A DNA stretch of 64,000 nucleotides from Gemmatimonadaceae bacterium (GTDB taxonomy: Bacteria > Gemmatimonadota > Gemmatimonadetes > Gemmatimonadales > Gemmatimonadaceae). Position numbers and translations under genes: made by a program. The DNA lies in contig JBBDYC010000008.1 in NCBI GenBank assembly GCA_040901985.1, forward strand, positions 48,490 through 112,489. Reading direction: 5' to 3'. This document shows positions 6,267-29,437 of the stretch, one piece after another (positions within the stretch are counted from its first letter, which is position 1; each line of letters begins with the position of its first letter). Under the pieces are notes generated by a model. The model ran no database searches and was not told where the DNA came from. It was given only the letters and a program-made list of their open reading frames with translations.

Positions 6267-6271
6267 CCCTG

Positions 6272-11076: not shown

Positions 11077-11315
11077 ATGCCCTCCATTAAAGTGGCAACG
11101 GAGACGCGCAAGCCGTTCGCCACGGACGCGAGAACCGTGATGGTCGGGTTTCTAGCTCCCCGCTCCAGGCCGCTCAAATAGGTTACGTGTACTTGACTGC
11201 GGAAGGCGAGCTCCTCTTGAGAGAGGCCCTGATCCTTCCGAAGAATTCGAATCCGGCGACCAAGCTGCTTCGAGACGTCAGCAGACCTAGGGCGAGACCT
11301 TTTTCGTGTAGCCAT
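11073..11315 (-). CDS. R-M controller (C) protein, XRE HTH
   Basis: LSQEELAFRSQVHVTYLSGLERGARNPT; 4-nt overlap with REase. Confidence 0.85.
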   Translation of the reverse strand: MATRKRSRPRSADVSKQLGRRIRILRKDQGLSQEELAFRSQVHVTYLSGLERGARNPTITVLASVANGLRVSVATLMEGM

Positions 11316-11346
11316 TGGCTATGGATACGAAGACGCTATAGATTCC

Positions 11347-11362
11347 TCCACAGACTATGAGT
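11347..11362 (-). promoter_or_regulatory. C-box-like operator
   Basis: Minus strand ACTCATAGTCTGTGGA resembles the C.PvuII-type operator half. Confidence 0.55.
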
Positions 11363-12904
11363 AAACCATACGATGGCGATGCCATGAGCATACTCGAGAA
11401 GCTTCCTACAGGTGCAGCGCGTGAAGCGCTCAGAGAGAAGGGGCAGTTTTTCACACCCGGTTGGGTGGCGGACGCCATGGTCTCGTTTGCCGGGCGGGGC
11501 GCTAAAGCGCTGTACGACCCCGGCTTCGGCCTCGGAGCGTTCTCCTTGGCGACTGATCGAGTGTTTGGCGCTGCAGCACGAGATTACGCTGGATGTGACA
11601 CGGATCCGACCGTCTGGAGCCGCGCCCGAGATCACGGCGTAAGGGAGGACGTTCTCGAGAAAGTGAAGTGCGTGGACTTCTTCACTGTTGATCGTCTTCC
11701 TGATGGAACGTCCGTAGTGTCGAACCCCCCTTACGTCCGACATCATCGGCTCGAGACAAGCCAAAAGGAACACCTGCGTGCTCTCGGGACTCGCACGCTA
11801 GGGCGCGCCCTTGACGGGCGGACCGGAATTCATGCCTACTTCCTTATCCACGCGCTCAATCTCCTGCCGAAAGGGCAGCGGCTGGCATTCATCGTTCCTT
11901 CGGACATCTGCGAGGGTGTGTACGCGAAGCCGCTGTGGAAGTGGATAACGTCTGCCTACCGCGTTCAGGCGTTGGTGACCTTCTCACCCGAAGCCTCTCC
12001 GTTTCCCGGAGTGGACACAAACGCTGTCGTGCTACTGATCTCGAATGAGTCGCCCGGGAGCGAGTACTCGCTTGCTCGTGTGAAGACCTTCGGAACTGAC
12101 GCGCTGAGCGACTGGATCAAGAATGGACTGCCTGTGCACGACATGCCCGACCTAGTAGCGACGAGACGAACGATAAGTGACGGAGTCAGGGACGGCGTAT
12201 CGCGCTTTCCGCTCGTTGGAGCCCGCGAGAGCGGACTGGTTCTCGGTGACTTTGTGAAGGTTGTGCGTGGAATTGCGACCGGAGCAAATGAGTTCTTCTT
12301 TCTGACTAGCAAGCAGATCGAATCGCTTGGACTTCCCCAAAGTGTCTTAGTTCGCGCTGTGGGGCGTACGCGCGACATCACGAGTGAGGTCGTCTCGCCG
12401 CAGGACTTAGTCCGATTGGACGAGGAGGGGAGGCCCACATTCCTCCTATCTCTCGACGGCTCACGAAAGGAGGATCTATTGCCGGAAATTCGCAACTATC
12501 TTGCCATAGGAGAGGAGCAGCAACTCCACACCAGAGCCCTAATTGCGATGAGGAATCCGTGGTACAAGATGGAGAAGCGGGTTCCGCCTCCGTTCCTTTT
12601 CGCGTACCTCGGCCGCAGAGAAACGCGCTTTGTTGAGAACCGCGCACGACTCGTTCCGCTCACGTCATTTCTTTGCGTATACAATCGTCCGGAGACTGGA
12701 GCATCCGACGCTGAGCTTGGCCGGTTGCTAGCAGATCCGGAGCTACATCGTGCCTTGCCCTTCGTGGCGAAGTCGTACGGCGGCGGAGCGATCAAGCTCG
12801 AGCCACGGTCGTTAGAACGCGTGCCGTTGCTACCGGATCTCATAGTACGGCATAACTGGATCCTGAACGTCGAGCCAACATTGCAGCGAGACCTCGCAAT
12901 CTGA
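11357..12904 (+). CDS. N6-adenine DNA methyltransferase (gamma class)
   Basis: GQFFTP, YDPGFGLGAF (motif I), NPPY (motif IV), GIATGANEFF, KSYGGGAIKLEP; true start may be 11384. Confidence 0.9.
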   Translation: MSKPYDGDAMSILEKLPTGAAREALREKGQFFTPGWVADAMVSFAGRGAKALYDPGFGLGAFSLATDRVFGAAARDYAGCDTDPTVWSRARDHGVREDVLEKVKCVDFFTVDRLPDGTSVVSNPPYVRHHRLETSQKEHLRALGTRTLGRALDGRTGIHAYFLIHALNLLPKGQRLAFIVPSDICEGVYAKPLWKWITSAYRVQALVTFSPEASPFPGVDTNAVVLLISNESPGSEYSLARVKTFGTDALSDWIKNGLPVHDMPDLVATRRTISDGVRDGVSRFPLVGARESGLVLGDFVKVVRGIATGANEFFFLTSKQIESLGLPQSVLVRAVGRTRDITSEVVSPQDLVRLDEEGRPTFLLSLDGSRKEDLLPEIRNYLAIGEEQQLHTRALIAMRNPWYKMEKRVPPPFLFAYLGRRETRFVENRARLVPLTSFLCVYNRPETGASDAELGRLLADPELHRALPFVAKSYGGGAIKLEPRSLERVPLLPDLIVRHNWILNVEPTLQRDLAI

Positions 12905-12976: not shown

Positions 12977-13037
12977 GGATAGCGTGTGCTTCTGTTGCGA
13001 CCGCATCTGCGCTCGTCGGCAGCAAGCGTCTTTAGCA
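12977..13037 (-). repeat. Degenerate attC site
   Basis: TGCTAAA gacgc TTGCTGCCGAC...GTCGCAACAGAA gcacac GCTATCC; homologous to the attC at 23261. Confidence 0.6.
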
Positions 13038-13045
13038 CGCCGCGG

Positions 13046-13616
13046 GTATAAACCGAGGACATAGGTAACACTGCTAACGTGGCACGTAACCGGGGAGGTT
13101 GCGATGCCGTGGCGGAAGCTGAGACCTATGGACCAGAAGAAGGGGTTCGTGCGCGAGTACCGGCGCGGACTGTATACGCTGACGGAGCTTGCCGAGCGCT
13201 ACGATCTCTGCCGGAAGAGCGGCTATGCGCTCGTGCGCCGAGTGGACGAGCCAGGCATCGCGGGACTACAGCCGCAAAGCCGGCGACGGCACACGTCGCC
13301 GAACCGGACACCGGATTACGTCGCTACGATGCTCATCGAGGCGAAGCGGAAGTATCCAGCCTGGGGCCTAGAGATGCTGCTGCACTGGCTGCGACCACGG
13401 CATCGGGAGTTCCGCAACTGGCCCGCCAAAAGCACTTCGGTCGCGAACTTCAAGCGCGAGGCGATCCGGCCGCCGAAGGCCACGATGCGCTCGCAACAAC
13501 GGGCCTACGATGCGTTCCGCGCTGGGTACAACGCCGGCCGCCACGCCGATGACCGCAAGCAGAGCCTGCACTGGACGGACCTACGTTGTCCGCCCAGCGC
13601 ATTCTCTATGCTGTAG
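13046..13616 (+). mobile_element. IS481-family remnant with internally deleted transposase
   Basis: End sequence GTATAAACCGAGGACATAGGTAACA; MPW...LTELAERYDLCRKSGY HTH; DDE core largely missing. Confidence 0.7.
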
Positions 13617-13620
13617 CTGG

Positions 13621-14775
13621 TCAGCTCCCGCGGAAGTTGATCATTGAGTTCGCGAGCAAACTAGACCAATGGCGCTGACTCTTGCCCATCTTATTAGGAT
13701 TTCGACCAGCGTCGTCGCAAGCCTCGTCGGTGACGCGAAGGAGAGAGAGTCCGTGTCGGTCCCAGATGGCGTTGAGATTTAGGTCTTGGCTCACCCAACG
13801 GTACTTATCGTCTTCGCCAACCGTGACGAACTGTCGGAAACAGGCGAGTAGTGGAAGCAGCGCGGATGGGAGTGGCTGCGCGTCACTGGTTCGATCGTTG
13901 AACGGCAGGACTTTCCTACCATTGTGAACCCACTTGAGCCCACCAAACCGGCCGCTAGCGTCATTCCAGACACCCTGGGACGTGGCAGCGATGTGATCGT
14001 GGAGTTCAAGGATATCCGTGACTATTGGAGCCAGTTTCTCGACTCCACTCGAGTCGGCAACATAGTCCTTGAGTACCGCCTCCTTGCTTGAATAAGCCTT
14101 GACAGGTTGTGTCTGGTCGGGCTTTGGCGGGTACTTCGCGATATCGAACATCGAGAGCATCGCAACGACATCACGAGCCGTAAGCTCGCCTTCATCGTTC
14201 TCGCTCCAAGCAATTCGACCGCCGTAGGGTTTACTGGCGAGCACCGCTTTGAGCCAGTCGAACCGACCTTCGAGGTTCTTTAGGCTCATGAGCTTTACTG
14301 CAACCGATGTATTCAGTCCACCGGAAATCACATCGATGAGGTCGGGGCGCAGGTTGGTGAGGACCTCGAGCTTCACATACTGCTCAGGAAACGTCGCGGT
14401 AGTGTCCGCATTAGCCTCCGTAATAATCTTAGCAGTATGCCCCCCATCGACGATTCCGTCCATCATTCCATTCTCATCGTTCAAATGGAGCGTGTACTCG
14501 TCTTCACCGCGCTTTTCCACCCGTCGGGCAATGACCGTGATGCCCTTATTCTTCAGATGAAAAAGACCGTCGTTTGATTTCAGGCTATCGCGAATCTCTC
14601 TGTAAACTGAACGATCGGTGTTGGGTTGTCGTGCATTGGGATCCAAGCACTCAGCGAGCGCGGCAGGGAAGCTGTTCGCCTGCACAAACAAAATATGCCG
14701 GTCCACACCCTCATTCTGATAGGTGGGATCCGGCATCCGGCGGGCAAAGTTGGCCCGAATAACAAATGTCTTCAT
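13621..14775 (-). CDS. AIPR family protein
   Basis: FHLKNKGITVIA, GIVDGGHT, ISGGLNTSVAV motifs. Confidence 0.75.
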   Translation of the reverse strand: MKTFVIRANFARRMPDPTYQNEGVDRHILFVQANSFPAALAECLDPNARQPNTDRSVYREIRDSLKSNDGLFHLKNKGITVIARRVEKRGEDEYTLHLNDENGMMDGIVDGGHTAKIITEANADTTATFPEQYVKLEVLTNLRPDLIDVISGGLNTSVAVKLMSLKNLEGRFDWLKAVLASKPYGGRIAWSENDEGELTARDVVAMLSMFDIAKYPPKPDQTQPVKAYSSKEAVLKDYVADSSGVEKLAPIVTDILELHDHIAATSQGVWNDASGRFGGLKWVHNGRKVLPFNDRTSDAQPLPSALLPLLACFRQFVTVGEDDKYRWVSQDLNLNAIWDRHGLSLLRVTDEACDDAGRNPNKMGKSQRHWSSLLANSMINFRGS

Positions 14776-14860
14776 AAAAAATCTCCCGTCCAAACTGCCG
14801 GCGCTGCCGACGCTGGACTCAAGGTTGATCAATCCTGCCATCCGGCAGGTTGACGGCTCA

Positions 14861-14889
14861 AGTATAGGCCATCACCTCTGTGGTGTCAA
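14861..14889 (-). promoter_or_regulatory. Consensus-like sigma70 promoter for AIPR gene
   Basis: TTGACA-17 nt-TATACT on minus strand. Confidence 0.75.
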
Positions 14890-15216
14890 GTTCCAACGCG
14901 ACTCCGAGTCCCGGATTCAGTCATCCCCGCCGGTCCAGAGGAGGACTCGTATGCAGTCGGTGGCCATGGCCCCGGCAGCACGCCAACGGAGCCGAACGCT
15001 CCCCATCGGTCGTCCACTTCGCGGCTGAAAACAGGCTGCAATGGAATCTGGACATGCGAACGTTGGAGCGACCGCGCTACGGGTCGAGCGGAAGCAGACT
15101 TCATGCGTAAGCCCGGCGCTGAAGTGAACGCGGCTTTTCTCACTGCGAATCCCACGTTGGCGATTTCGAAGAACCAGTGTTCGATCAGGCACTCGTCGCG
15201 GAAACCAAACATACAG

Positions 15217-16653
15217 CTATTTCATAAGTCGGCGTCCGGCCGTTCTCCCAAGACCCAGGGCGACTGCAGTCTGGAGGTAAGCGCCCTCGGCATCAAACGT
15301 GATTGGCGGATCGAATCCGAGGAGCTCGCGAAAGCGCGCTTCCACGAACGTCCTGAGGGGAGCAAAACGAAAGGCTCCGCCGACGAATACGACGGAGAAG
15401 TGCCGACTAGCAACTCCGCTGTCGGCAGCGCACAACGTGATAAAGTTATTGAGGGTTGCCCCAAACCCTGACCTGCGAGACTGCATATCTAGCTCGAGCT
15501 CTAGCGATGGAGTGAGTGCGGACAAGAGACAGTGCTGCCTCTGGGAGAGGAGCTGCGAGTTCCGTTGGTCGTGAGCGGTGAGACCGAGAGTATTCGCCAC
15601 ATCGACGAACGTAATGTCCGCGAATTCATTGCCAGAAGAGAATTGGCGCTTTGCGTCCTCGAATTGAGCGTCCAATGTCACTTGTCGGGCCCTACCATCC
15701 AGGAGCTTGAATGCGTCACGCAGTCCCGAATTGCCACGCAAGATGCAGTTGGCCATCGCCTCGTTGAGATTCCGTCCACCAAATCGATGTGAACCGGAGA
15801 CGGTCTCGTTACCTACCTCTACAAGTCCCGAGCCAAGCCGATTCAGTTCGACCAACGACATATCCGTTGTACCGGCACCCGCGTCGATTATCATCAGCGC
15901 TTGGCTCTCACGATGTGGCTGGAGATCGATTCCTCGGGCCGCCGCGAGTGATTCAGGTTGGAACGTCACTTCAATATCCCTTGCACCAAACTCCCCTGCG
16001 AAATCGGCTTCGACCAGCGCCTGTCGTCGGCGCTCAGTGGCCAGCCGATATGACTCAGCCTCCGTCTTTGGAGAAATTGATGGAATGCCAATGACTACTT
16101 GGCTGATGGGTTCTCGGTACTCATCTGCGACCCGCCGTCCGACCGATCGAAATATCGCGGCGGTTGCGACGATCAGATCACTCTCTGATGGCCCGGGAGA
16201 TGCAATCTGGTAGAACTCGCGGCGCACTTCCGTGTTCTCGCTCTGGCTCATTGGATCCCACGTCGACTTGGTCTCCACCACCCGAGACCGGTACGTGGCA
16301 ATGTTGGGCTCGGAGAGCTCCGGTTTGAAGTGGGCGAGCAACATATCTGCTTCATGTCCCTCTCGGCACCAATTCTCGAAAGTGCCGTTGCGCTGCGCAC
16401 CTATACGTCGTTGCCAATACTCACCAAAGTCCTTCTGCGCTGGCTCAAATACGGACCGCACGTATCTTTTGGCCTCACCCGGTCGCCGAATGAGTGGTTC
16501 TAGGGCCGAGCTTCGGGCAAACCACACTTTCGAATTCACCAGTTCGTCAACGTTCTCGAGAATGATCAACCGGGGTCTTAGTAAGTCTGAACTGCGCGCG
16601 ACTGAGACTGCCGTCGTGGCTGTTCCAAAGTCAATTCCGACGGCTAGTGACAT
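15217..16653 (-). CDS. Hsp70/actin-fold ATPase (nucleotide-binding domain only)
   Basis: VGIDFGTATT, QPESLAAA, IIDAGAGTTD, FGGRNLN, FVGGAFR; no substrate-binding domain. Confidence 0.8.
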   Translation of the reverse strand: MSLAVGIDFGTATTAVSVARSSDLLRPRLIILENVDELVNSKVWFARSSALEPLIRRPGEAKRYVRSVFEPAQKDFGEYWQRRIGAQRNGTFENWCREGHEADMLLAHFKPELSEPNIATYRSRVVETKSTWDPMSQSENTEVRREFYQIASPGPSESDLIVATAAIFRSVGRRVADEYREPISQVVIGIPSISPKTEAESYRLATERRRQALVEADFAGEFGARDIEVTFQPESLAAARGIDLQPHRESQALMIIDAGAGTTDMSLVELNRLGSGLVEVGNETVSGSHRFGGRNLNEAMANCILRGNSGLRDAFKLLDGRARQVTLDAQFEDAKRQFSSGNEFADITFVDVANTLGLTAHDQRNSQLLSQRQHCLLSALTPSLELELDMQSRRSGFGATLNNFITLCAADSGVASRHFSVVFVGGAFRFAPLRTFVEARFRELLGFDPPITFDAEGAYLQTAVALGLGRTAGRRLMK

Positions 16654-18613
16654 GCTCTTGAGCCTCCTCAATCATATTGACGATCTGAGTAATGAACTCG
16701 CCAGCGGCAACGGTCTCCCGCTGCACGACTGCAAGCGTCGAGGACACCTCGTTCTGCACGCGCTCTGCAGCCCAGGCCGTAGTCTCGGTTGCCGCAGACC
16801 GGACGTACTCATGGACTCTTGCCGCAACTTCGTCAACGACGGGGTCAGCCAGCTTCTCGCTGAGTCCGAACGGTTTGTGTGATTTATGAGCATCCCGTAT
16901 CGCAACATGCTTCCAGACCGCACGCTTCGGCCCATCGTTCGCAACCAGCTCCTCTAGAGTGGATGATCCAAGCTCGCTCTTGTTAGTCGCCACGAAGCTA
17001 CACAGCACCTCAAAAAAGTAAGGCGAATCCGCTGCGTATTGCTCTACGCGCAACCGCGCTTCGTTCAGTTCGGTCGGTAACTGCTCAATGAGCGCTCGCT
17101 CTACTGAAGAGCGCGCCGCGCCTCCTACTAGCGCAGTCTGTGAAAGCTGCTGCACTAGCATCGCGAAGTCTGTGTTACCGACTTGTGTTGCGGACTCCGT
17201 GGTCTCGCTCGCCTCTGCCGGCGACTCCGGGAGTCTCTTCGGGCTCGCGATCTCCACGGCATCGACCAGTCGTGCCGTGTCAATGCTCAGCCAAGGCACC
17301 GGATTCTTCTCGAGCCTCCTCAATTCTGCAGCGAGCATGGCTACTAGCCGTCGGAGGCGAGTCGCTTCTTGTTGCGCTGAGGCAAGCCGATCTGCGTGTT
17401 GGGCACCTTCGAGTATCTGCGCGACGCGCGAACTCACTTGGACAAGCTCACGGCGCTCGATCACCCCCTGCAGTCCCTGCCAAAGGCGAATAGCCTCGTT
17501 GGCGTCGGCGGATTCCAGCAACTCAAACGGAGCGGCAGCAGCATCAAGCTTGGACAAACTGACGGCGCTACCATCGCGCGCGGCAACCTTCTGAAATTCA
17601 AGGCGGTCGGCAGGCGCAAGCGTGCGGGCACCAAGGTTTTGAAGAACAGCCTTAAGTGCGCTACTCGTCAGTTGTGGCGTGTTCACGGCCAACAGTGCCA
17701 ACAGTGCGGCTGCTGACTGTTTCTGAAGTTCCGCCAGTTGCTTCGCGCTCAGCTTGTTGGACATTGAGAGCCGAACAGCGTCTGCCCATACGTTGGCGGC
17801 TTCGGCTGGAACGCGTGCCTTGAGAAGGTGCGAGAACAACGGGCCAGCCACGACCTTCTTTCTTGCGGCAGAATTGAAGATAGTGTGGAGGACTTGCTGG
17901 CGAAAATCATTTAGCTTCCGGAATTCGCCCGCCACACCGCCCGTCGCTTTGGTTGGCGCCACGCCTGTCGCCGCAACCTTTGCGATTGCCCGCAGGGCTG
18001 CCGTCTCCTTCGGATTCGCCCCGGCATTTGGAGATAGGCTGAGAACTAGGTGCCGATAGCAGAGTTCCTTTGCCAGCGGGCACCCTAGCGCCGAAAGGGC
18101 TGCTGCGGAGTCGTGAGTGATTCCAACGTCGCGCCAAACAGCATGACTGTCGAACCCGTTGGTATTCGGAAGCCTCAACGTCACGAAAGTACTGAAGATC
18201 GCGGGAACGCTGTTCTCTACTTCGTCGTTCGATAGCGGCCAATTGCGTCGGCGCACGCGATTGGAAATCTGTTCCTCCCATTTGCCACGAGATACCTGCA
18301 ATCCCATCGCCATAGCAACAAGCTGCCGGCCGAGCGGATGCGCATTCATCGCAACACGAGCACTATCATTCTTGGTGAGATTCAGCAGCCTAGGGTCAAG
18401 CAAAGCGTCTAATGCCAAGAAGCTGCCGATGCCACCCAGGAACTCAGCGTTCAAAAAGGCAGCCCGCAGGCCTGCGGGGCTCTTGATAGAGCCTATCAGA
18501 GCCTTCCTTGCTTGCTGGTAGGCCGACCTTGTGAGGGGGTTCGCATCGGTGGCCGTAAGAAGCTGCTCAAGGGCTTGACGCGTGTTCGTTGGCGAAATCG
18601 GCTTTCTATTCAT
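16631..18613 (-). CDS. Uncharacterised 660-aa alpha-helical/coiled-coil protein
   Basis: Long ORF with AGGAG RBS; overlaps the Hsp70-like gene; Ala/Leu/Glu/Gln-rich heptads. Confidence 0.75.
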   Translation of the reverse strand: MNRKPISPTNTRQALEQLLTATDANPLTRSAYQQARKALIGSIKSPAGLRAAFLNAEFLGGIGSFLALDALLDPRLLNLTKNDSARVAMNAHPLGRQLVAMAMGLQVSRGKWEEQISNRVRRRNWPLSNDEVENSVPAIFSTFVTLRLPNTNGFDSHAVWRDVGITHDSAAALSALGCPLAKELCYRHLVLSLSPNAGANPKETAALRAIAKVAATGVAPTKATGGVAGEFRKLNDFRQQVLHTIFNSAARKKVVAGPLFSHLLKARVPAEAANVWADAVRLSMSNKLSAKQLAELQKQSAAALLALLAVNTPQLTSSALKAVLQNLGARTLAPADRLEFQKVAARDGSAVSLSKLDAAAAPFELLESADANEAIRLWQGLQGVIERRELVQVSSRVAQILEGAQHADRLASAQQEATRLRRLVAMLAAELRRLEKNPVPWLSIDTARLVDAVEIASPKRLPESPAEASETTESATQVGNTDFAMLVQQLSQTALVGGAARSSVERALIEQLPTELNEARLRVEQYAADSPYFFEVLCSFVATNKSELGSSTLEELVANDGPKRAVWKHVAIRDAHKSHKPFGLSEKLADPVVDEVAARVHEYVRSAATETTAWAAERVQNEVSSTLAVVQRETVAAGEFITQIVNMIEEAQEHVTSRRN

Positions 18614-18627
18614 TCCGAAAGCTCCTA

Positions 18628-18824
18628 CTCGAACGCTGGATTCCGCAAGCAGCCGAGAGCCCCCGCCGTCCCGATCCGGCTCAGACTCTAGATCATGCTC
18701 CTCCAGGGCCTTGAGGATCGTGGCAATACCTCCGCGATGTACTTCGATCCACGATCATTGGGAAAACGATGACCGCCGCCAGCACGCCGTGCGTCAAGCC
18801 CGTCGCCAGCAAGCGTCGTTAACC
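18628..18824 (-). repeat. attC-like site (long, possibly composite)
   Basis: GGTTAAC (contains upstream gene stop) gacgc TTGCTGGCGAC ... GCGGAA tccagc GTTCGAG. Confidence 0.55.
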
Positions 18825-19481
18825 CGGATCTCGAATGCGCGCCACAAGCCAAACCTCCGTGTCGTTTGGCAGCCGATGCGCCACGAGCCACACGTGACAA
18901 CGCTTTCGAACGCGAAGCGCGCGACTCTTGTAAACTGAGAAAGGAAGGAAGCAGGTCACCTCGGCTGCGTAACCGTAATCCGGATCGGCGTCGGCACGAA
19001 GGCGCAACTCAACGTGCGGCTCACTCACGAGCTTGCCTAAGAATCCACGGCTGACCGGATTCTCTGGATAGCTAAGACGCTTGAAGAAGTTCACCTGCCG
19101 CGCCTCTGATATGATTTGACCCTCTATTTCCTCCGAGTCTCCTTCAGGTACGACCGAGACAACCGTCTCTTTCCCGGTCTCGGAAAAGATGTCCCTTTGA
19201 AGTCGGTCGAGCACGGCTGGCGGCACGTCCACGCCACGCTCCACGGCCGCGGCTTCGATGAGTCGCTTGGTCTCTTGGGCGGAGACCCCGCGAGCGCGGA
19301 ACTGACGAATCTGGTAAGGGACGCACGTGCGCGCGTGAAGCGGCCACGGTTCACCCGGACTCTCAAAGAATACTCGCGAACCGCAGCTGCAAGAGAAGAA
19401 GTAGACGCGCGCGGTGCAGTCTTGGCATGTCGTACGCCACATTCTCGAAGAGCAACCCGAGGCATGATTTGGAACGCCCAC
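18819..19481 (-). CDS. Cassette protein with Cys/His-rich Zn-binding N-terminus
   Basis: HASGC...CQDC...CSCG...PWPLHARTC. Confidence 0.65.
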   Translation of the reverse strand: MGVPNHASGCSSRMWRTTCQDCTARVYFFSCSCGSRVFFESPGEPWPLHARTCVPYQIRQFRARGVSAQETKRLIEAAAVERGVDVPPAVLDRLQRDIFSETGKETVVSVVPEGDSEEIEGQIISEARQVNFFKRLSYPENPVSRGFLGKLVSEPHVELRLRADADPDYGYAAEVTCFLPFSVYKSRALRVRKRCHVWLVAHRLPNDTEVWLVARIRDPG

Positions 19482-19501
19482 TCAGTTGGCCCTCTAGATC
19501 G

Positions 19502-19601
19502 GTGTAGCGTTTACTTCCGCTGCGAGCGCTTTCACAAAATGGTGCCGTGGCCCCACAACCGCCACCTCAGCTGCGTTCGTCGGCAGCAAGGGTCGCTATG
19601 T
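19502..19601 (-). repeat. attC site with variant cores
   Basis: ACATAGC gaccc TTGCTGCCGACGAACGC...GCGCTCGCAGCGGAA gtaaac GCTACAC. Confidence 0.7.
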
Positions 19602-20531
19602 CGCCGCGAGCCATCGCGCTACTTCGGTGATCACGTGAACTGCCGGAGGCGCGCCAAAGGCGGCCAGCCACTCGTCAGCCGAACCGTGAACGAGGACACC
19701 CTGTCTCGGCAAGCAGAGCGCGAGCCGAGTGAAGCCAAACGGTGCATGGCCGTGGCTGCGGCTCCTGTCAAATGCGAAGTAACAGATCAGTTGAGCGACC
19801 GCCTTGGCCTGAGCACCGGCTTGGGTACACTTGAGCTCCACGAGCGTGTCCCCGGAGATCCAGTCTCCATCGCTTGCGATTACTGGACCGATGCCGCCGA
19901 AGCGCGGGTTGGGGAAGAAGTCACCGCCTATGCGAGTGTCGCGAACGTTTCGCAGTAGCGCTGCAATCTCCGCAAGGCTTTGTGGTGGAATGATGCGCTC
20001 AAACCACAAGCGAGCCGCGCGCGGAGAAATATGTCTTGGCAGCAATGAACTATTGATATCGCTCAGAGGCCGATAGCCCCGCCTCACAGGATCGAGCATT
20101 CCCAAGACTGCGAGCCATCCGAGGTAGGCTTCGCTATGAAAGTGTCCGCGACTGGGCAAGCGATAGCGGGCGATCGCATCTGCGATTTGCCGCGAGGCCG
20201 GGCCTCGACCGCGCAACCAAGTGATGGCAGGTTGCGCGATGTCGACACCAGACAAGTGGAGAACACCTCGATCTACTGCTTGGCCCACAACCGAGTAGAG
20301 AGATTGCGACCTCGTCGCTTCAGATGCTGGTACTGCGAGCCCAGTGCGAGCGGCGCAATTGATAGCTGCAATGGTGCTGCGAGACTGGGGAAGGAGCTGA
20401 CGCGTAAACTCAGGGGTTGCGCGCAAGAAGTCCGAAAGTGGCGCCCGCGCTGGCTTCTTCTGCGGAGCATCGAGTCTCCATTGCTTAACCTCCCGCGCAG
20501 GGAGTGAAAGCTGGCTAAGTGCGATGCGCAT
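19596..20531 (-). CDS. Cassette protein with C-terminal PD-(D/E)XK nuclease domain
   Basis: NPRFG...SDGDWISGDTLVELKC...QLICY. Confidence 0.7.
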   Translation of the reverse strand: MRIALSQLSLPAREVKQWRLDAPQKKPARAPLSDFLRATPEFTRQLLPQSRSTIAAINCAARTGLAVPASEATRSQSLYSVVGQAVDRGVLHLSGVDIAQPAITWLRGRGPASRQIADAIARYRLPSRGHFHSEAYLGWLAVLGMLDPVRRGYRPLSDINSSLLPRHISPRAARLWFERIIPPQSLAEIAALLRNVRDTRIGGDFFPNPRFGGIGPVIASDGDWISGDTLVELKCTQAGAQAKAVAQLICYFAFDRSRSHGHAPFGFTRLALCLPRQGVLVHGSADEWLAAFGAPPAVHVITEVARWLAAT

Positions 20532-20549
20532 CCGACCTCAAGTCAGTCC

Positions 20550-20684
20550 ACATCGCATTTGCCGGTGCTGTGGACGCTCATTCAAAAAGACTCTGGCGGC
20601 GTGGCCGCAACCAGCCCGGGTCATCACGGCCACCCCGTCCAACCCATCATTACGCGCGGCCGTCGGCAGAAAGCGTCGCTATCC
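20550..20684 (-). repeat. Degenerate attC site
   Basis: GGATAGC gacgc TTTCTGCCGACGGCCGC...GCGTCCACAGCAC...GCGATGT. Confidence 0.6.
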
Positions 20685-21266
20685 ATTCGCGGGCCGAATC
20701 GCAGCTGGGTGTGGAGTTCCAGCGGTCTGCCCCACGAGGGAAAAGAGCATTCCGCCGCGAACGGTAAGACGCTGCAGAGTTCGCGGATTGGACTCAATGG
20801 AAGCATGAAAGCGCTCCCAGCCGCGAACAACGGCATTCGCGAGATCCTCCAGTTGTACAGCAACCGCCTCCTTCTCGTCGCTCACGGCAATGAGCCGCCT
20901 AAGTGCCGGTAGAGAGCCGCTCCCCAATGCGTAGGAGATTGGGCGAGCCTTTCCCTTGCGCTGAAGTGCAGAATAGGCAGAGAACGAATGCAGAACTCCG
21001 CACCGTGCGGCATACAGATCAAGTGCCGAGCAGTCGAGTCCCGACTGGGGCAGCAGGTACTCGTCAACCCACCTTACGAAATCTTTCTTGGTGACGTCGC
21101 CACCGTGTTCAACAGAAAGCCACGCGGCCGCATCGATCGTCGAGTAGAGAACGACGAGAAAGGATTGAATGTGTCCTTTATCGAGGAGAACTCTGAGGCT
21201 CGCGAACGACTGGTCGAATGCACTGCGAATTGAGAGCGCGCTTAGCGCGGCAAGGTCCTGTGCCAT
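20679..21266 (-). CDS. Cassette protein, HEPN-like
   Basis: ATG immediately after attC core; helical, LYAARCGVLH (Rx4H). Confidence 0.65.
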   Translation of the reverse strand: MAQDLAALSALSIRSAFDQSFASLRVLLDKGHIQSFLVVLYSTIDAAAWLSVEHGGDVTKKDFVRWVDEYLLPQSGLDCSALDLYAARCGVLHSFSAYSALQRKGKARPISYALGSGSLPALRRLIAVSDEKEAVAVQLEDLANAVVRGWERFHASIESNPRTLQRLTVRGGMLFSLVGQTAGTPHPAAIRPANG

Positions 21267-21400
21267 AGATAACGTTTGGTTGTGCTGCAGCCGATCAAAC
21301 AACATGCGGGACGGCGGCCACGCCGACCCCTGCCTTACAATAGAGCGTGGCCGCCGTCCCGCTACATTAGCCCGGCTGTCTGCACCAACCACCGTTAGGC
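21267..21400 (-). repeat. attC site (intact)
   Basis: GCCTAAC ggtgg TTGGTGCAGACAGCCG...TCGGCTGCAGCACAA ccaaac GTTATCT. Confidence 0.85.
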
Positions 21401-21413
21401 TGGGCGGGCCACG

Positions 21414-22163
21414 CTATAGGGCCTTGAAGTAGGTCGCGCCATCGAGCTGTCGGAAAAGGAACGAGATGAAACTGAGGATATCAAGAGCATCCTCCTTCAG
21501 AATCGGCCAGTCGAGTGCGGGCTCGTGCGCGGTCGGATTGCGAATGGCCTGCATCAGGCCGGCCGAAAGGAACTTCACGCCGTCCTGCACATTGCGATCT
21601 GTGTCCGTCACGCACGCAGTGATCTTTAGGACTCCCTTCTCCGCACCCAGTACGTCGAGCATCAACGACTGGCCATCTTTGGAGCTCTTGGACTTTCGCT
21701 TTACTTCCACGTTGTAGACTTTCGCGGACTCGAATACCGCGTGGAAATAGTTGCCCTGGAGAAACAGCTTGCGCGAGTGTTGCACCACGGTGGAGTGAAA
21801 TCGACGACTCGCGAACAGCTCTAGATTCTCTTTGTTCACGATGGAGGCACCGATACCCGCCTCGCTGAGGATGCGCTGGACCGCTTCGCGTTCGGCTTCG
21901 GCCGATATCTTGAGGCAGAACTGAACGAGGAGCCTGTCTCGCTCCTCACCGGTCAGTGGCTGTTTCGCCAGAGTCAGAATCCAGTCGTGCACCAGCTGCG
22001 CGCGCAGTGACGTAATCGCGTCGTTGACGAACGACTGCTTCTGAAACCGAAAGAGTGCGCCCGCAACGCGATTAATCTCGTTGACTGTGGACGACCACTT
22101 GAAGATGTCTCCGACTTCAACGGCGATCGCGCGATAGTTCGGAGCCACTCTCTCTCCGTTCAC
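21414..22163 (-). CDS. TIGR02391/Ymh-family (HEPN-related) cassette protein
   Basis: GNYFHAVFESAK...DGQSLM...IRNPTAHEP...DALDILSFIS; GTG start downstream of attC. Confidence 0.8.
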   Translation of the reverse strand: MNGERVAPNYRAIAVEVGDIFKWSSTVNEINRVAGALFRFQKQSFVNDAITSLRAQLVHDWILTLAKQPLTGEERDRLLVQFCLKISAEAEREAVQRILSEAGIGASIVNKENLELFASRRFHSTVVQHSRKLFLQGNYFHAVFESAKVYNVEVKRKSKSSKDGQSLMLDVLGAEKGVLKITACVTDTDRNVQDGVKFLSAGLMQAIRNPTAHEPALDWPILKEDALDILSFISFLFRQLDGATYFKAL

Positions 22164-22180
22164 GGTTAAGGTGGACCTCA

Positions 22181-22280
22181 GCCGAATGTGTGCTTCTGCT
22201 GCGAGCGCTTCCATAAAGTGGAGCAGTGGCCCCACAACCGCTACCGCACCTGCGCTTGTCGGCAGCAACCCTCGCTATGC
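22181..22280 (-). repeat. attC site with variant cores
   Basis: GCATAGC gaggg TTGCTGCCGACAAGCGC...GCGCTCGCAGCAGAA gcacac ATTCGGC. Confidence 0.7.
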
Positions 22281-22321
22281 AGCCGCGACGAGAGGTCATG
22301 TACTAGGTTGGCAGGCTACGG

Positions 22322-23218
22322 CTACGGGACAAGCAGGAAGTTGAACAAGTAAATGCCGTAGTTGTCCTGCACCCAACAATCGACGTGACACGCGCGGCCG
22401 ACAGGAACAGAAAGTGGGACCCCTGAGGAATGCCGAAAGTCGCGAAGGTCCTTGCTGAGAGTTTGTCGAGCCGAAAGCCGAGGAATCACAGCGTAGAATG
22501 CGTCTACGAAGGCCCAGCTATTGCGCGGCTGGTCGCCCACAAAGAGCCCTAAGCGGACCGACTGCATGTCGGTGTCTCCGAGGTTTTCGAGGCTGATTGA
22601 GTCCGTTGTCAGGGCAACGGCCATGTGGACTCGATGCTCAACCCCTTCGTGCGGGCGTAGATTGCGCAGTGGTCGGGCGTCAATCGAAAATGTTCCGGTC
22701 AGTGGAGGAATAGCAGGAAACGCCAGACCTGCAGAAGCCTTTGGCGCTTGAGCGAACGAGATACCCCTTTCCCTCGCCTTTTTGAAAGCCTCTCGTAGCG
22801 TGTCAAGTGCGAACGCGTTGGAGCGTTGCTGATACTCCCTCGCCAAGCGCTGCTTAAGCTCCTCAAGCCCATCGGCAATCTGCGGAAGTTCGGAAGCCCC
22901 TTTCAAGAGAGCATACGCAGCTGGGATGCCGACTGCGACTATAAGATACGCCTCGATGACAAATGAGCCCTTATACGCATCTCCAATCCTTACCTTAGGC
23001 CGCTCTTCAGGCGAAAGCCCGACTCTGGCAAAGTACTCGTCTGCAATCTCAGAGACAGTCGCCACGAAGAGCTGCTTCCACTTGCCAGAGTACTCCATAA
23101 GAAAGTTGTCGTCACGGGCAAACCACTCGTCAGCTGCATGGTCGGTCATCCAGCGGCGAACTTCATCCGTGAAGGCGAGTTCCGCGCGGAGATTGGCGAT
23201 GACTGTCTCGCGTTCCAT
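22322..23218 (-). CDS. Hypothetical cassette protein with central hydrophobic helix
   Basis: 298-aa ORF filling the space between two attC sites. Confidence 0.7.
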   Translation of the reverse strand: MERETVIANLRAELAFTDEVRRWMTDHAADEWFARDDNFLMEYSGKWKQLFVATVSEIADEYFARVGLSPEERPKVRIGDAYKGSFVIEAYLIVAVGIPAAYALLKGASELPQIADGLEELKQRLAREYQQRSNAFALDTLREAFKKARERGISFAQAPKASAGLAFPAIPPLTGTFSIDARPLRNLRPHEGVEHRVHMAVALTTDSISLENLGDTDMQSVRLGLFVGDQPRNSWAFVDAFYAVIPRLSARQTLSKDLRDFRHSSGVPLSVPVGRACHVDCWVQDNYGIYLFNFLLVP

Positions 23219-23260
23219 GGTCGGTGGTCTGAGGTGATGACACCAAGCGAGCTAGAGTCC

Positions 23261-23327
23261 GCATAACGTGTGCTCCTTCTGCAACCGCTACCGCACCCGC
23301 GCTTGTCGGCAGCAAGCGTCGCTAGCT
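23261..23327 (-). repeat. Short attC site
   Basis: AGCTAGC gacgc TTGCTGCCGAC...GCAGAA...cacac GTTATGC. Confidence 0.7.
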
Positions 23328-24386
23328 GGTGCGGCGGTCGCGCATCCAGCCGGCCACCGGACGAACAAGCCGGCCGGACGGAATCGAGGAGACCTCAAGA
23401 GTCTCAAGATTGTAGTCGTGTGCTGAACGAAGGTCGATCCAGACACCCTTGGGGCTCAGCGCAAGGCGAACATCGTAGGGACGTTCGCTAAAGAGGATGA
23501 CAGTACCAAGAATGTCTGTGGACTCGTCTGCGTCCCAGGTGGCGGCAATGAAGTGGTGCCTGCCAGCACGCTCACCCGCGTGACGATTCTGGTCCTCGGA
23601 TCTGGGTTCCATCGGCCGGACGAACGCACGCATGTCTCCCTCTCCGTAACGAATGAAGCACCGAATGGGATTGAAGTCAGGCGAGTATACAAATGTCGGG
23701 TACTCCTTAGCCGTTACCTTTGCCAAGTAATTGAATGCGATTTTTGCGACCGCACGCCGCACAATTGCATCGACAGTCTGTCTCACCTCGAGCTGGAACT
23801 CGAAGCCGTCTGGCGGTGGCGTAAACTGCTCACCAGGACGAAACGTGAGACCGTGCGTCGCCAAGTGCTCGATCAGTCGGTCCTTTGCTCCCGGATGCTG
23901 GACGGACCAGAATAGATCCTTCCTTTCAACATCAATGTCCGGTACAGACTTCGGATCTGTGGTGACGAGTTCGGCCTCAGTCATGCAAATAAACCCGCCG
24001 CTCTTGAGCCGGAAACGGACCTGCGGGCGTAGCACAAACCCTATTCGACCGTCGGAACTGCCCGGCGCTAGCTCAAGATAGAGCGGACCCAGCGGCGAAT
24101 CGGGAGGCAGCTGAACGGTGACTCGGGACTTCCTAATCTCGTAGGCCTCGTCCGCGGGTTTGAGTCCGAGTGTAAGCCGCAGCATCGCCTCGACCGAGTC
24201 CCGTGTGAGGACCAAGTCTAGGGTCCTGCCAAACTCTGTGTTGCACGTTGCGCAAACCCTTGGGTCCTCGGAAGGAGTCAGCGTGAGAGCTCCCTGAAAG
24301 CCACCGAACGCTGCGTGGAGAACGTGCTCCCGATTGAACTGTTCGAGAGGCTTCGTTTCGAGACAGTAGATGCAGAGCGCCTTCAG
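23322..24386 (-). CDS. HNH endonuclease cassette protein
   Basis: Frame stays open upstream of the track ORF: CIYC...NREHVLHAAFGG...VCATCNTEFG; GGAG + CTG start at 24386; AVAKIAFNY. Confidence 0.75.
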   Translation of the reverse strand: MKALCIYCLETKPLEQFNREHVLHAAFGGFQGALTLTPSEDPRVCATCNTEFGRTLDLVLTRDSVEAMLRLTLGLKPADEAYEIRKSRVTVQLPPDSPLGPLYLELAPGSSDGRIGFVLRPQVRFRLKSGGFICMTEAELVTTDPKSVPDIDVERKDLFWSVQHPGAKDRLIEHLATHGLTFRPGEQFTPPPDGFEFQLEVRQTVDAIVRRAVAKIAFNYLAKVTAKEYPTFVYSPDFNPIRCFIRYGEGDMRAFVRPMEPRSEDQNRHAGERAGRHHFIAATWDADESTDILGTVILFSERPYDVRLALSPKGVWIDLRSAHDYNLETLEVSSIPSGRLVRPVAGWMRDRRTS

Positions 24387-24414
24387 TGTTGGCTCCAGTG
24401 ACGATGCTGCATCC

Positions 24415-24510
24415 AGCTAACGTGGGATTTTGCTGCGGACACTCCAATAAGATGCGGGCGCGAAGCGCCAGCCTCAATAGAGTGGCCGTCAGTACCAAGC
24501 GGCGTTAGCT
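24415..24510 (-). repeat. attC site (intact)
   Basis: AGCTAAC ... GTTAGCT with internal CTGACGGCCAC/GTGTCCGCAG stem; near-copy of 25382-25478. Confidence 0.9.
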
Positions 24511-25377
24511 CGCGACTCGGCTCGATCCATCCGTGGCCATAAGCACCAGAGGAAGGTTCAGTCGAGAGACGACGAGGTAATGGAGTATCAAGTCAGCGCC
24601 ATTCAAGAAGTCGTCCCGCTCGTTCTCTGAGAGTTCGTCCTTGAGTGCAAGTGCAGATCGCTTGTCGACTAGATGCCTAGTCTCCCTTCGATTGTTACTG
24701 ATGTCGAAGAACCAGGGCAATGCGCGAGGGAGGGATGCGATTACCGCCGGAGGCATCGCCGCCTGTTTCGCCGTTAGATCCATGCCTGGCAGCAACTCGC
24801 GCCCCAGCTCGAGGCCTTTGCTGAGCAAGAGAGGAGCGAGCGAGGGATCGTGAGTGGTCAGAGCGCCATAATGGAGCTGACCGAGTTCCGCCGTGGTTGT
24901 ATCAGCACTTCCGATCGCCTCGAGAGCCCGCAGCGTGTCGTCGAGCGGAGTTGCGGGCAGCACTCTCGTGCGCGGACGCGACGCAATCCCGTCGAGTAGC
25001 TCCCAGTCGTCTGCCGCGATGAGTTCTTTGCTGGTTGCGTCGAGCGACCAAGCGCGCGGCACTTGTTGCGGCTGAATAAGGTATCGAAACGTCTTTCCAT
25101 TGAGCGGCCAACCGGTTGCGTAGTTGAAAGCGCGGTCAACATCTCGGGCGAGGTCACAGGCGCGCATGAACACGATACCGGGATCATCACCTTCCTCAAT
25201 CGCGCCGTCCAGCTGAATCTGGTAGGCTGGACCTGAGATGCTCTCGTGCCAAGTGACGGACTCAGACAGTGTCCACACTCCGCGAGTCTCCGAGTGCGGT
25301 GCGAGCTTGGTGTCGACCTCAACGCGAATCGGGTGCGAATGAAGCGACAACAACCGAGGCGGAATAGTTCGCTCCAA
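24505..25377 (-). CDS. Cassette protein, possibly HEPN-like
   Basis: Stop codon lies inside attC R''; C-terminal helical region with RRETRH (Rx4H). Confidence 0.6.
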   Translation of the reverse strand: MERTIPPRLLSLHSHPIRVEVDTKLAPHSETRGVWTLSESVTWHESISGPAYQIQLDGAIEEGDDPGIVFMRACDLARDVDRAFNYATGWPLNGKTFRYLIQPQQVPRAWSLDATSKELIAADDWELLDGIASRPRTRVLPATPLDDTLRALEAIGSADTTTAELGQLHYGALTTHDPSLAPLLLSKGLELGRELLPGMDLTAKQAAMPPAVIASLPRALPWFFDISNNRRETRHLVDKRSALALKDELSENERDDFLNGADLILHYLVVSRLNLPLVLMATDGSSRVAS

Positions 25378-25381
25378 GTCG

Positions 25382-25478
25382 AGCTAACGTGGGATTGTGC
25401 TGCGGACACTCTAGTAAAATGCAGCGTCGCAGGCGCTGCTACCATAGCGTGGCCGTCAGCCACCACGCGTCGTTATCC
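25382..25478 (-). repeat. attC site (intact)
   Basis: GGATAAC ... GTTAGCT; stem with two extrahelical bases. Confidence 0.9.
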
Positions 25479-26003
25479 TGCACGCACATCAGTCGATACG
25501 GGGAGGCTCAGTCGGAGCCAGCGGCGCGCGCAAGCGCTTTCCCCGGCGTCTATGAGTGAAGCGCGAAATAGCTGAGTCCGGGGCTTGGCGAGTCTAAAGA
25601 GCGGCTCGCTCGTCGGGAGATACGCATAGAACTCACGCACGGATTCGGCCGGGACTTGCGCTGTAGCGAAGCGGCTATACAGCGGGAGCGTGGCAACGTG
25701 CCCAAGAACTCCTGACAGCACCAGCGCTTTGAGCTCGACACCAATCCGTCCCTGGTTCTGGACGCGCAAGGTAATCGTGGGCGCCGGCGGACCCACGAAT
25801 GTGTCAGTCGACGGGTCGTAGCTTGAGGACGGATGTTGAGACCCAAATCCTACGGAGAAATGCAGTCGCGGCACGTCCCGGAGGCGCTGTGCGCGTCCAA
25901 CAACGATCGTCGCGAGGATTCCAAGGAGCCCGACAACCGCAGTGAGCATCTCGCCCGCAGAAATCTCTTCGACAATTGCGGACAAGAGGCCGGTCTCTAC
26001 CAC
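25473..26003 (-). CDS. First cassette: single-TM hypothetical protein
   Basis: AAGGAG RBS + GTG; hydrophobic LTAVVGLLGILATIVVG followed by beta-rich domain. Confidence 0.6.
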   Translation of the reverse strand: MVETGLLSAIVEEISAGEMLTAVVGLLGILATIVVGRAQRLRDVPRLHFSVGFGSQHPSSSYDPSTDTFVGPPAPTITLRVQNQGRIGVELKALVLSGVLGHVATLPLYSRFATAQVPAESVREFYAYLPTSEPLFRLAKPRTQLFRASLIDAGESACARRWLRLSLPVSTDVRAG

Positions 26004-26031
26004 CTGAGTCTCCTTGTCTGGATAACGAGTG

Positions 26032-27318
26032 TTAGGCCGCGAAGAATCTTTGTCGAGCGCTTTCAAGACCCTGGGCGAGGCGCAGAACATCGGCGCTCAT
26101 GCTATAAACCCAAACACTAGCCCGCACCGTAGCCACCACCCCCATCCCCCGCATCAGTGGCTGCGCACAATGATGCCCCGCTCTCACGCATACGCCGGCA
26201 GCATCGAGCGCAGTAGAAACATCATGCGGATGCACCTCCGCCAACGAAAACGAAACCACCCCCGACCGCGCCTCAGCAGTAGCAGTCCCATACAAAGTCA
26301 CCCCAGGCACCTCGCCCAAAGCAGCCATCATCTCCCGAGTAAGCTCCACCTCGTGAGCCCGCACCTTATCCATCCCAAGCGCATCCAAGTACGTACAAGC
26401 AGCCGCCAACCCAACAGCACCAGCCACATTCGGCGTCCCCGCCTCGAACTTATGCGGCAACGCATTCCAAGTCGTCGAGAGATCCGAAACCCACTCAATC
26501 ATATCCCCGCCAAACTGATACGGCGGCATCGCCTCAAGCACAGCGCGCCGAACCACCACGCCACCTGATCCCATCGGCCCACCCATCTTGTGCCCGCTGA
26601 ACGCATACACATCCACACCCAGCGAATCCACCGACACAGCAAGATGCGGCACCGCCTGAGCCCCATCGCAAACAACTAACGCCCCACGCGCACCAGCCCG
26701 CGCGATCGCGACGATCTCCGCAACAGGATTGATCGTCCCAAGCGCATTCGACACGTGCCCAAACGCGACAACCTTCGTGCGTGCGTCAACCAACCGAGCC
26801 ATCATCTCGAGATCAACCCCGCCCGCAGCATCCAACTCGCAGATCCTGAACTCGGCCCCCACGCTCAAAGCCAGCTGCTGCCAAGGCACAAAGTTGGCGT
26901 GATGCTCCATCCGCGTGACCACGATGTTGTCACCCGCGCGGACATTAGCCCGCCCCCAAGCGGTGGCCACGAGATTCAACCCCTCGGTGGTCCCCCGCAC
27001 AAAGATCAGCGTATCAGCATCCGCCACACCCACAAACCGCGCGATCCGCACACGCGCATCGTGATACGCCTGCGTCGCCGCCGCCGACAACGCGTACGCC
27101 CCGCGATGCGGATTGGCGTTCTCTGTCTCGTAGTAGTTCCGAATGGCATCCAACACCACACGCGGCTTCTGCGACGTCGCGGCAGAATCCAAATACACAA
27201 GATCCGGCTGCGCAGCGAGCAACGGAAAATCCGATCGTGGCGCGAGCGACCCCTTCGTCACGCCAGCGCCCGCCGGCCGCTTCGCGCCCCGCGCGACCTT
27301 CACGCCCGTCTTACCCAC
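26032..27318 (-). CDS. sufS: Cysteine desulfurase
   Basis: YLDSAATSQKP, FSGHKM, RAGHHCAQP. Confidence 0.95.
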   Translation of the reverse strand: MGKTGVKVARGAKRPAGAGVTKGSLAPRSDFPLLAAQPDLVYLDSAATSQKPRVVLDAIRNYYETENANPHRGAYALSAAATQAYHDARVRIARFVGVADADTLIFVRGTTEGLNLVATAWGRANVRAGDNIVVTRMEHHANFVPWQQLALSVGAEFRICELDAAGGVDLEMMARLVDARTKVVAFGHVSNALGTINPVAEIVAIARAGARGALVVCDGAQAVPHLAVSVDSLGVDVYAFSGHKMGGPMGSGGVVVRRAVLEAMPPYQFGGDMIEWVSDLSTTWNALPHKFEAGTPNVAGAVGLAAACTYLDALGMDKVRAHEVELTREMMAALGEVPGVTLYGTATAEARSGVVSFSLAEVHPHDVSTALDAAGVCVRAGHHCAQPLMRGMGVVATVRASVWVYSMSADVLRLAQGLESARQRFFAA

Positions 27319-27635
27319 ATCCCCCCCTCGCGCTCCTCGATTTCATAGCGCACCAACGGATCCTCGGCCGGCCCGCGCAACACCTCGCCGGTGACGCACG
27401 AGAACTTGGCCCCGTGCCAGCAGCACTCGAGCTCGCCATTCGCGTACAACGTCCCCTCGGAGAGCGGATACTCCGAGTGCGGACAGGAATCCTTCACCGC
27501 GAAGAGCGCCCCTTGGTGCCGGCCGATGCACAGGCGCGCGCCATTCGCCAGCGTCACCGCCACAAGCGTCCCCTCGTCCACCTGCTCGGGCTTGAGGCCG
27601 CTCACCGGCACGAGCCCGTCCGCCGCTGCCGTCAC
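27300..27635 (-). CDS. Rieske [2Fe-2S] ferredoxin
   Basis: CPH...CCWHGAKF; in suf operon. Confidence 0.85.
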   Translation of the reverse strand: MTAAADGLVPVSGLKPEQVDEGTLVAVTLANGARLCIGRHQGALFAVKDSCPHSEYPLSEGTLYANGELECCWHGAKFSCVTGEVLRGPAEDPLVRYEIEEREGGMWVRRA

Positions 27636-28120: not shown

Positions 28121-28124
28121 CGCG

Positions 28125-29435: not shown

Positions 29436-29437
29436 GG

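Follow-up and report, generated by a model that had tools for sequence, protein, structure and literature searches.

The stretch analysed here (the window) comprises 64,000 nucleotides of a Gemmatimonadaceae bacterium (G000:C8:48490-112489, where G000 is the source genome, 2.64 Mb in 19 contigs, and C8 one of its contigs, of 333 kb). Between 26037 and 12977 on the minus strand it carries an array of integron gene cassettes without a local integrase, placed directly behind sufS. The open reading frames (ORFs) of this interval are unrelated to one another, co-oriented, and have a GC content of 55-61% compared to about 69% genome-wide. The array is internal to C8, with the nearer contig end 61 kb away. 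Logan contigs from the probable source run span it in two overlapping pieces with zero differences, a comparison that is not independent of the assembly; runs X2 and X3 contain almost none of the window, and no RNA run containing it was listed. The suf operon (26032..31685, minus strand), of which sufS is the last gene, lies co-oriented and directly upstream. SufS scored over the TIGR01979 cut-off, and SufC, SufD and the SufU-type protein over the cut-offs of their profiles, while the remaining two genes are what we take, from their translations, to be sufB and a Rieske-like ferredoxin.

A previous reading made from the letters of the window (the sequence-only reading) had proposed an attC/cassette architecture with at least nine homologous palindromic spacers. 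To avoid circularity, the covariance model used to examine this (R2, 22 base pairs) was built on 30 attC bottom strands all taken from outside the window. In the alignment of these 30 sites (A4) the R boxes pair, the spacer is unpaired and two bases are extrahelical, with 95.6% of cells paired. Compensatory changes were found at 11 of the 22 pairs, a count inflated by the relatedness of the aligned sites; none of 500 shuffles was as high and slid registers were far lower. In positions 1-34000 of the window, R2 detected eight full-length sites, all on the bottom strand, with scores of 43.9-86 bits (E 4e-10 to 1e-21), the best match elsewhere in that interval being 16.5 bits. The independent model thus recovered the architecture, and the count of nine holds as eight complete sites and one half site, the latter (18824-18793) consisting of a left arm detected by model R1 (E 0.0035) and missed by R2. 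Rfam gave zero matches in the window.

All sites lie on the minus strand. Starting from the head, site B (25382..25478) has the canonical boxes GGATAAC and GTTAGCT and site C (24415..24510) the canonical AGCTAAC and GTTAGCT. Site D (23261..23327) is 67 bp long, with an R'' core AGC and a weak fold, and site E (22181..22280) combines an R'' core AGC with an R' core ATT, in which the first base is changed. Site F (21267..21400) is again canonical and 134 bp long. Site G (20550..20684) has cores AGC and GCG and folds weakly, site H (19502..19601) has cores AGC and GCT, and the half site I (18793..18824) keeps R'' (GGTTAAC) and L'' with an unrecognisable right arm. Site K (12977..13037), the last one, is 61 bp long with cores AAA and GCT. 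The RYYYAAC (R'') and GTTRRRY (R') boxes are accordingly intact at B, C and F, one box is altered at D, and both are altered at E, G, H and K. At six of the nine sites a stop codon falls inside R'', which agrees with the several that had been reported before. A supposed tenth attC at 15222 was rejected: it had no model match and a fold z of 0.2, and the stretch resembles an IS3 remnant.

With at least two attC sites (eight of them complete) and no intI on C8, the array formally belongs to the clusters of attC sites that have no integron-integrase (CALINs) in the sense of Cury et al. (PMC4889954; accessible text), as the earlier reading had it. A complete integron has an adjacent intI, and the intI genes of this genome are found only on contigs C3 and C17. 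The tyrosine recombinase profiles gave 7 (PF00589) and 10 (TIGR02249) matches in G000, none of them on C8, so that the reported lack of a tyrosine recombinase in the 64 kb extends to the whole contig. The search of the remaining genome that had been proposed along with that claim yielded two intact IntI over the TIGR02249 cut-off, one on C3 and one on C17. In both translations we could see what we take to be the catalytic residues and the IntI-specific insertion. The best match of the C17 IntI in the plasmid collection was Gemmatirosa kalamazoonensis (59%), which has the same intI-attI layout and a similar core, and the attC model also matched a Gemmatimonas metagenome-assembled genome (MAG); both matches would place the organism, with good probability, in Gemmatimonadota.

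The attI of the genus was defined from loci linked to intI, which is present in 34 of the 54 other genomes. In 31 intI loci, all 27 attC matches (16 loci) lie downstream of intI on the same strand, and at least 23 of the loci carry a downstream core of the form YAAT-MMAC-GTT or GTGAAT-N5-GTT. The head of the sufS array (26020..26037, minus strand) reads GCCTAAC-ACTC-G|TTATCC, where TAA is the sufS stop codon and the crossover falls between 26026 and 26025. It matches the genus attI pattern YAAYMCWCGTTA (core YAAY-MCWC-G|TT), a pattern that was widened with knowledge of this site, and the match is therefore not blind. The head has the spacing and most of the letters of the genus core, and the stop codon forms part of it. 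The first cassette begins with G|TTATCC five bases past the sufS stop, and the closure of these seven bases with the first R'' is perfect (7/7). In some relatives the sufS stop is followed by R''-like letters, which were also considered and were discarded, as they had no covariance-model support.

Arrays that start at an attI-like core without an integrase gene occur throughout the genus. The core pattern was found 67 times in the 55 genomes compared to 13 times for a reversed control, and a second core type 14 times. Leaving out 27 matches beside a full intI and the site of the window itself, 53 candidates were examined. In 28 of them, from 15 other genomes, neither intI nor attC occurs in the 3 kb upstream and one or more attC sites follow on the same strand; 27 of these 28 have a first R'' that is an exact complement of the seven bases starting with G|TT. 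Among the rest, seven have attC sites and less than 3 kb upstream; in four, intI sequence lies upstream and is intact once, truncated at a contig end once and broken twice; three belong to the ends of attC sites on the opposite strand; and 11 are followed by no attC, five of these being at most 0.5 kb from a contig end or having little flank. Integrase-less arrays in this genus thus usually begin at an attI of their own. In genome G070, which is a single contig, one intI goes with three attI cores, and each of the three arrays starts at one of these; about 30 attC sites make up one satellite array (best 150 candidates scored). G016 combines one intI with five cores, and a module of 185-250 bp is common to three of them at 86-94% identity. 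In G050 and G011, the module upstream of a satellite core agrees with its intI-linked counterpart at 92-93% identity, and the similar stretch in G050 starts where the intI gene ends. Some satellites lie after the same upstream gene in several species, and intI-linked and satellite arrays share cassette-sized segments at about 87-99% identity in G016 and G070.

The source genome itself carries two further integrase-less heads, on C11 and C16. The C11 head (L049, G000:C11:99600-100896) stands about 200 bp after an AAA gene, presumably MoxR-like, and its first cassette closes perfectly. At the C16 head (L051:1000-3790, minus strand), merA, merP, merT and merR, each over an NCBIfam cut-off, lie between the attI-like head and an attC whose R'' closes in 7 of 7 bases, so that a mer operon of 2.7 kb forms a single gene cassette; a literature search listed no mer-operon cassette of this kind. 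Additionally, a lone attC on C17 (L053, G000:C17:91012-91140), far from the others and with a right end G|AT, fits an insertion of the attG type. Three further attI look-alikes, at the end of C7 and the starts of C11 and C14, were dismissed because they belong to a shared repeat of 52-56 bp. We take this repeat to be a probable group II intron 3' end. Cassette DNA follows it, and on these contigs it interrupts three arrays in the assembly.

The quality of the sufS array changes along its length. Counted from the head outwards, the cassettes close in 7, 7, 6, 6, 5, 5, 6 and 4 of 7 bases, and the four closures quoted in the sequence-only reading were as stated. Folding of the bottom strands, which it had suggested as a check, gave a divided result: B, C and F beat their shuffles (z -3.0, -4.2 and -8.5), and D, E, G, H and K, the remaining complete sites, have z values of about 0. 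Sites D, E, H and K are also shorter than the 130-140 bp form of the same subtype in relatives. Furthermore, the distal third is broken up by a truncated IS481-family element (13040..13616, plus strand; NF033577 E 1.4e-12, under the cut-off), which abuts the R'' end of attC K, and by a probable IS3-family transposase remnant (14886..15212, minus strand), which had no profile match, is not an attC and is presumed to be IS3 from its motif. A young, canonical head and a decayed tail, that is, an array in the course of fossilising, is the best reading of this gradient.

The region beyond sufS has its own history. The gap between sufS and ggt (gamma-glutamyltransferase) is about 0.13 kb in two relatives, 1.9-14 kb in eight others and 26 kb in G000, where ggt lies just beyond position 1 of the window. 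No attC was found downstream of sufS in the regions of 15 relatives, and one Fic gene in the far part of the interval is shared (83%) with the closest relative. On account of these size differences, the attC-free relatives and the shared Fic gene, the sufS-ggt interval is an old variable region to which the array was added at the sufS end in this lineage. As a side observation, sufS (window 26032-27318) has G/T-rich third codon positions, with a GC content at third positions mostly of 0.56-0.8 per block compared to 0.75-0.96 in the gene bodies of relatives.

Taken with the genus-wide pattern, the locus is, in our view, rather probably a satellite integron platform that was filled in trans and grew in place behind sufS. 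An IntI encoded elsewhere in the chromosome would act in trans on the 3' end of sufS and insert circular cassettes at this docking site, each new one ahead of the older ones, so that the array would have grown where it stands. The site would be a chromosomal attI look-alike (a hot spot of the attG type) or a trimmed attI, and not a full attI module. The first cassettes may be expressed by read-through from the suf operon, a possible source of transcription into the array, and the loss of arms and core bases from their attC hairpins would fix the distal ones. We would put forward tentatively, as a wider proposal, that the integron of this genus is a distributed system: several attI platforms placed behind housekeeping genes would be served by one or two integrases, with copies of the attI module reaching new loci. 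The sufS platform would in this view be in the course of arising from host sequence, a stop-codon region resembling attI that was adopted and used for docking repeatedly, and its new cassettes would come under the suf promoter.

Several observations weigh against growth in place at sufS. Under a position weight matrix derived from other genomes' intI-linked cores (14 of them), the left half of the head scores 7.0 bits, the lowest value, compared to 9.5-21.9 bits for satellites with a complete core, and 1,650 positions of the genome score as high (about 3 in 10,000). Such a score is unlikely at a crossover that is fixed by other evidence, yet it is far from that of a strong attI. The head also lacks the 100-250 bp upstream module seen at many other satellite cores. 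No cassette of the sufS array recurs in the other arrays of G000, which are themselves broken at contig ends, and in G016 and G070 a 1.55-kb element inside attC sites, and not cassettes, accounts for much of what the arrays share. The last 15 sufS codons, in addition, are outlying, with 40% nucleotide identity to 13 relatives compared to 67% among these, and four of the last 12 codons end in A, which is matched by 10 of 803 long ORFs. Beside these points stand two others on the position of the head: what lies upstream is sufS coding sequence, which was no more attI-like than the sufS ends of relatives in a test that separated true heads poorly, and the other 28 heads all stand clear of the stop codons of co-oriented long ORFs, by 126 bp in the nearest case.

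This outlying tail could be the scar of a different event, namely that a static CALIN arrived as a block by horizontal transfer, by homologous recombination in the 3' end of sufS or by the split of another array, its head being a leftover collapsed attC or attI fragment that no longer takes cassettes. The letters GCCTAAC, which are also a perfect R'' box, would suit this view, as would the IS481 and IS3-like remnants inside the array and the variable sufS-ggt interval (0.1-14 kb in 10 relatives). However, a decay ordered from head to tail is not expected of a block, nor is a collapsed attC expected to keep the 4-nt spacing of attI; the frame and stop position of sufS are native, and a displaced sufS tail was looked for in the island and not found. 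We judge such an arrival unlikely, while giving it real weight, and the head may be an adopted host sequence, a trimmed attI or a block-transfer scar. The array could also be what remains of a complete integron, if intI and most of attI had been deleted between sufS and the first cassette. Because intI in the genus is co-oriented just upstream of attI, one deletion would give the present layout, and broken or fragmentary intI before attI can be seen in G062:C66 and G053:C162. This origin is nevertheless improbable: C8 holds no intI remnant, no region behind sufS in the 15 relatives has an attC (0/15), no IntI-like ORF was among the ORFs listed behind their sufS genes, and the end of the deletion would have to coincide exactly with the native stop codon.

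The altered cores invite a further question, that is, whether AGC and GCT reflect an integrase with shifted specificity (G|CT for G|TT) and not decay. TAGC was found in four of eight intact R'' boxes here compared to 5 of 176 in 29 array stretches of relatives (Fisher p 1.7e-4), and R' reads GCT at two sites. According to the accessible text of Frumerie et al. (PMC2811028), the second base of the crossover is tolerant and the first must match; on this ground attC D may still be functional and attC E, with A in the first place, probably is not. The tolerance would also accommodate a shifted specificity, but the AGC and GCT changes are unpaired within cassettes and accompany arm deletions and lost folding. 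Across the genus, own genome excluded, TAGC (5) is no commoner than other changes (7) next to 332 canonical R'' boxes, and most variants in relatives are in the tail portions of arrays. A special GCT recombination code was rejected on the unpaired changes, the genus-wide counts and the tail location of the variants, and we regard a shifted integrase as very improbable.

Growth at a satellite platform builds on several known elements, which we describe from the accessible parts of the sources. CALINs (2,961 in a RefSeq survey quoted by Loot et al.), mobilisation of their cassettes in trans, insertion at attG sites and the idea that attI derives from attG have all been described before. Mobilisation of CALIN cassettes in trans is stated by Ghaly et al. 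(PMC9668308) and in a preprint on Xanthomonas CALINs (bioRxiv 10.1101/2025.06.18.660453), where the arrays resemble ours in their recurring chromosomal positions away from intI; the text available there reports no attI, and the sufS array was found in G000 only among the genomes examined. The definition of CALIN (PMC4889954) ignores attI, and IntegronFinder seeks only exact attI of classes 1-3; in contrast, an attI-like site heads the sufS array, and integrase-less arrays that start at an attI are common in the genus. Loot et al. (bioRxiv 10.1101/2022.09.11.507474) report extra-integron cassettes at chromosomal G|WT (attG) sites, including single attC sites lacking integron-integrases (SALINs), with possible expression from host promoters, propose that slippage removes attC and leads to domestication, and suggest that attI derived from such a hot spot. 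The cassettes in the accessible part of that work are single or in small clusters at sites that do not resemble attI, whereas the sufS array has eight to nine sites, an age gradient and a site that resembles the attI of its lineage. Integrons of the Treponema type (PMC3607928) have intI in the orientation of attI and the cassettes and upstream of them, a layout also seen in this genus and in Gemmatirosa kalamazoonensis; one attI per integron is assumed in that paper, and its accessible text describes no extra attI-headed arrays. We found no description of attI-headed integrase-less arrays as a lineage-wide design, nor of such arrays in Gemmatimonadota, in a literature search that covered subscription papers and supplements in part.

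CALINs are usually read as remnants or stray insertions, in part since a generic search for attI is impossible. A lineage in which a recognisable attI heads most integrase-less arrays makes the choice between relic and live array directly testable, and the sufS site bears on whether host sequence can turn into a docking platform. If the integron of the genus were indeed a distributed system, many CALINs would be live capture sites and not relics, and the sufS site would be a natural case of the proposed transition from attG to attI.

The genes carried by the array (all on the minus strand) had been taken for a library of mostly uncharacterised anti-phage genes, with three HEPN-like proteins, an HNH and a PD-(D/E)XK nuclease and an Hsp70 pair. 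The gene of cassette 1 (25473..26025) belongs to no family; it encodes a hydrophobic N-terminal stretch and its true start must follow the crossover. Cassette 2 (24505..25377; 290 aa) has an R-x4-H motif conserved in three homologues and is HEPN-like by motif only; its structure model has a predicted local distance difference test (pLDDT) value of 38. Cassette 3 (23322..24410) has an N-terminal HNH_5 endonuclease domain (PF14279, E 2.5e-8) and a frame open 5' of the listed TTG, and a search of PDB sequences with its protein gave nothing meaningful. Cassette 4 (22322..23218; 298 aa) has no family. Cassette 5 (21414..22180) carries a HEPN-like Ymh/TIGR02391 domain and matches the PADLOC profiles PD-Lambda-3_B (2.7e-27, C-terminal half only) and Aga_HEPN. 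Cassette 6 (20679..21263) encodes a helical protein of 195 aa (model pLDDT 86) whose R-x4-H is invariant in 18 sequences. Its top two fold matches are HEPN proteins, at weak values within the common range (Z 6.8 and 6.6, root-mean-square deviation 3.8-4.2, 113-126 aligned residues), and Foldseek gave no significant match with the model; the protein is probably a HEPN. Homologues of cassettes 5 and 6 adjoin attC sites in other genomes, and one of cassette 6 is itself a cassette in a Gemmatimonas MAG. Cassette 7 (19596..20531) has a C-terminal PD-(D/E)XK-like domain (PADLOC RTasPDDEXK, E 2.6e-14) and cassette 8 (18819..19481; 220 aa) a Cys-rich N-terminus and no family.

Further out, an overlapping pair (15217..18613) encodes a 660-aa protein and an Hsp70/actin-fold protein, with no attC found after the pair by the covariance model search. 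The 660-aa protein has one homologue (48%) and no usable Atlas match. The AIPR gene that follows (13621..14889; PF10592, E 8e-23) has its own sigma-70-like promoter at 14889-14861 (11 of 12 consensus matches), and neither the pair nor this gene has intact bounding attC sites. Compared with the claimed cargo, the profiles support HNH_5, Ymh, PD-(D/E)XK and AIPR genes, while four genes (those for the 205-, 298-, 220- and 660-aa proteins) had no match in Pfam, PADLOC, NCBIfam or PHROGs, and within the array PADLOC gave partial single-gene matches and no complete multi-gene system. Of the three HEPN-like proteins, that of cassette 5 is backed by its profile, that of cassette 6 in part by motif and weak fold, and that of cassette 2 by motif. 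The Hsp70/actin fold has profile support in one member of the pair. Judged by domain content, anti-phage or toxic nucleases are probably over-represented in the cargo, and a role in defence is plausible by analogy. In this regard, the sedentary integrons of Vibrio proposed as anti-phage biobanks by Darracq et al. (bioRxiv 10.1101/2024.07.02.601686; accessible text) likewise hold small unrelated cassettes that are defence-like or uncharacterised; 18% of those tested there were active, whereas the sufS cargo is known from sequence. The few candidate defence genes that the cargo contributes are no longer remarkable by themselves.

The same genes in fixed synteny in relatives, which the sequence-only reading had named as counter-evidence, were not seen: among 250 family genomes (best two candidates per genome scored) no conserved gene order was found, and the six with matches share single genes, the insertion sequence or an attC only. 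Beyond the last attC lies a type II restriction-modification system (10198..12904; methyltransferase on the plus strand, controller and putative restriction endonuclease on the minus strand) with PADLOC matches to MTase_II (6e-41), Control_protein (3e-13) and REase_II (0.005). It has no closing attC, the stretch behind it (about 9900-10150) giving no model match. Window positions 1-10200 hold a toxin-antitoxin and defence cluster without attC, with HTH-HipA, SoFic, NYN (HEC-09) and AAA (PDC-S01) genes, a second Fic gene common to the closest relative and a nucleotidyltransferase-like gene.

Lastly, some details were noted in the arrays of relatives. The cores of L173 (G041:C22), L181 (G044:C1) and L201 (G019:C8) are attI-like with no attC within 6 kb downstream, and are possibly empty platforms or chance matches. 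The 1.55-kb element of G016 and G070 splits attC sites at the same position, with 91-99% identity (L101, L102, L154, L155, L163-L165, L169 and L170). In G016, tandem near-identical cassettes of about 270 bp are present in the intI-linked array and two satellites (L102:5000-6130, L155 and L163). At the end of G050:C31 (L105:3062-3195), two attC left arms stand in inverted orientation, and in G070 (L170, G070:C1:1344650-1345800) an element that we take to be IS481-like is inserted in the module upstream of a satellite attI core.

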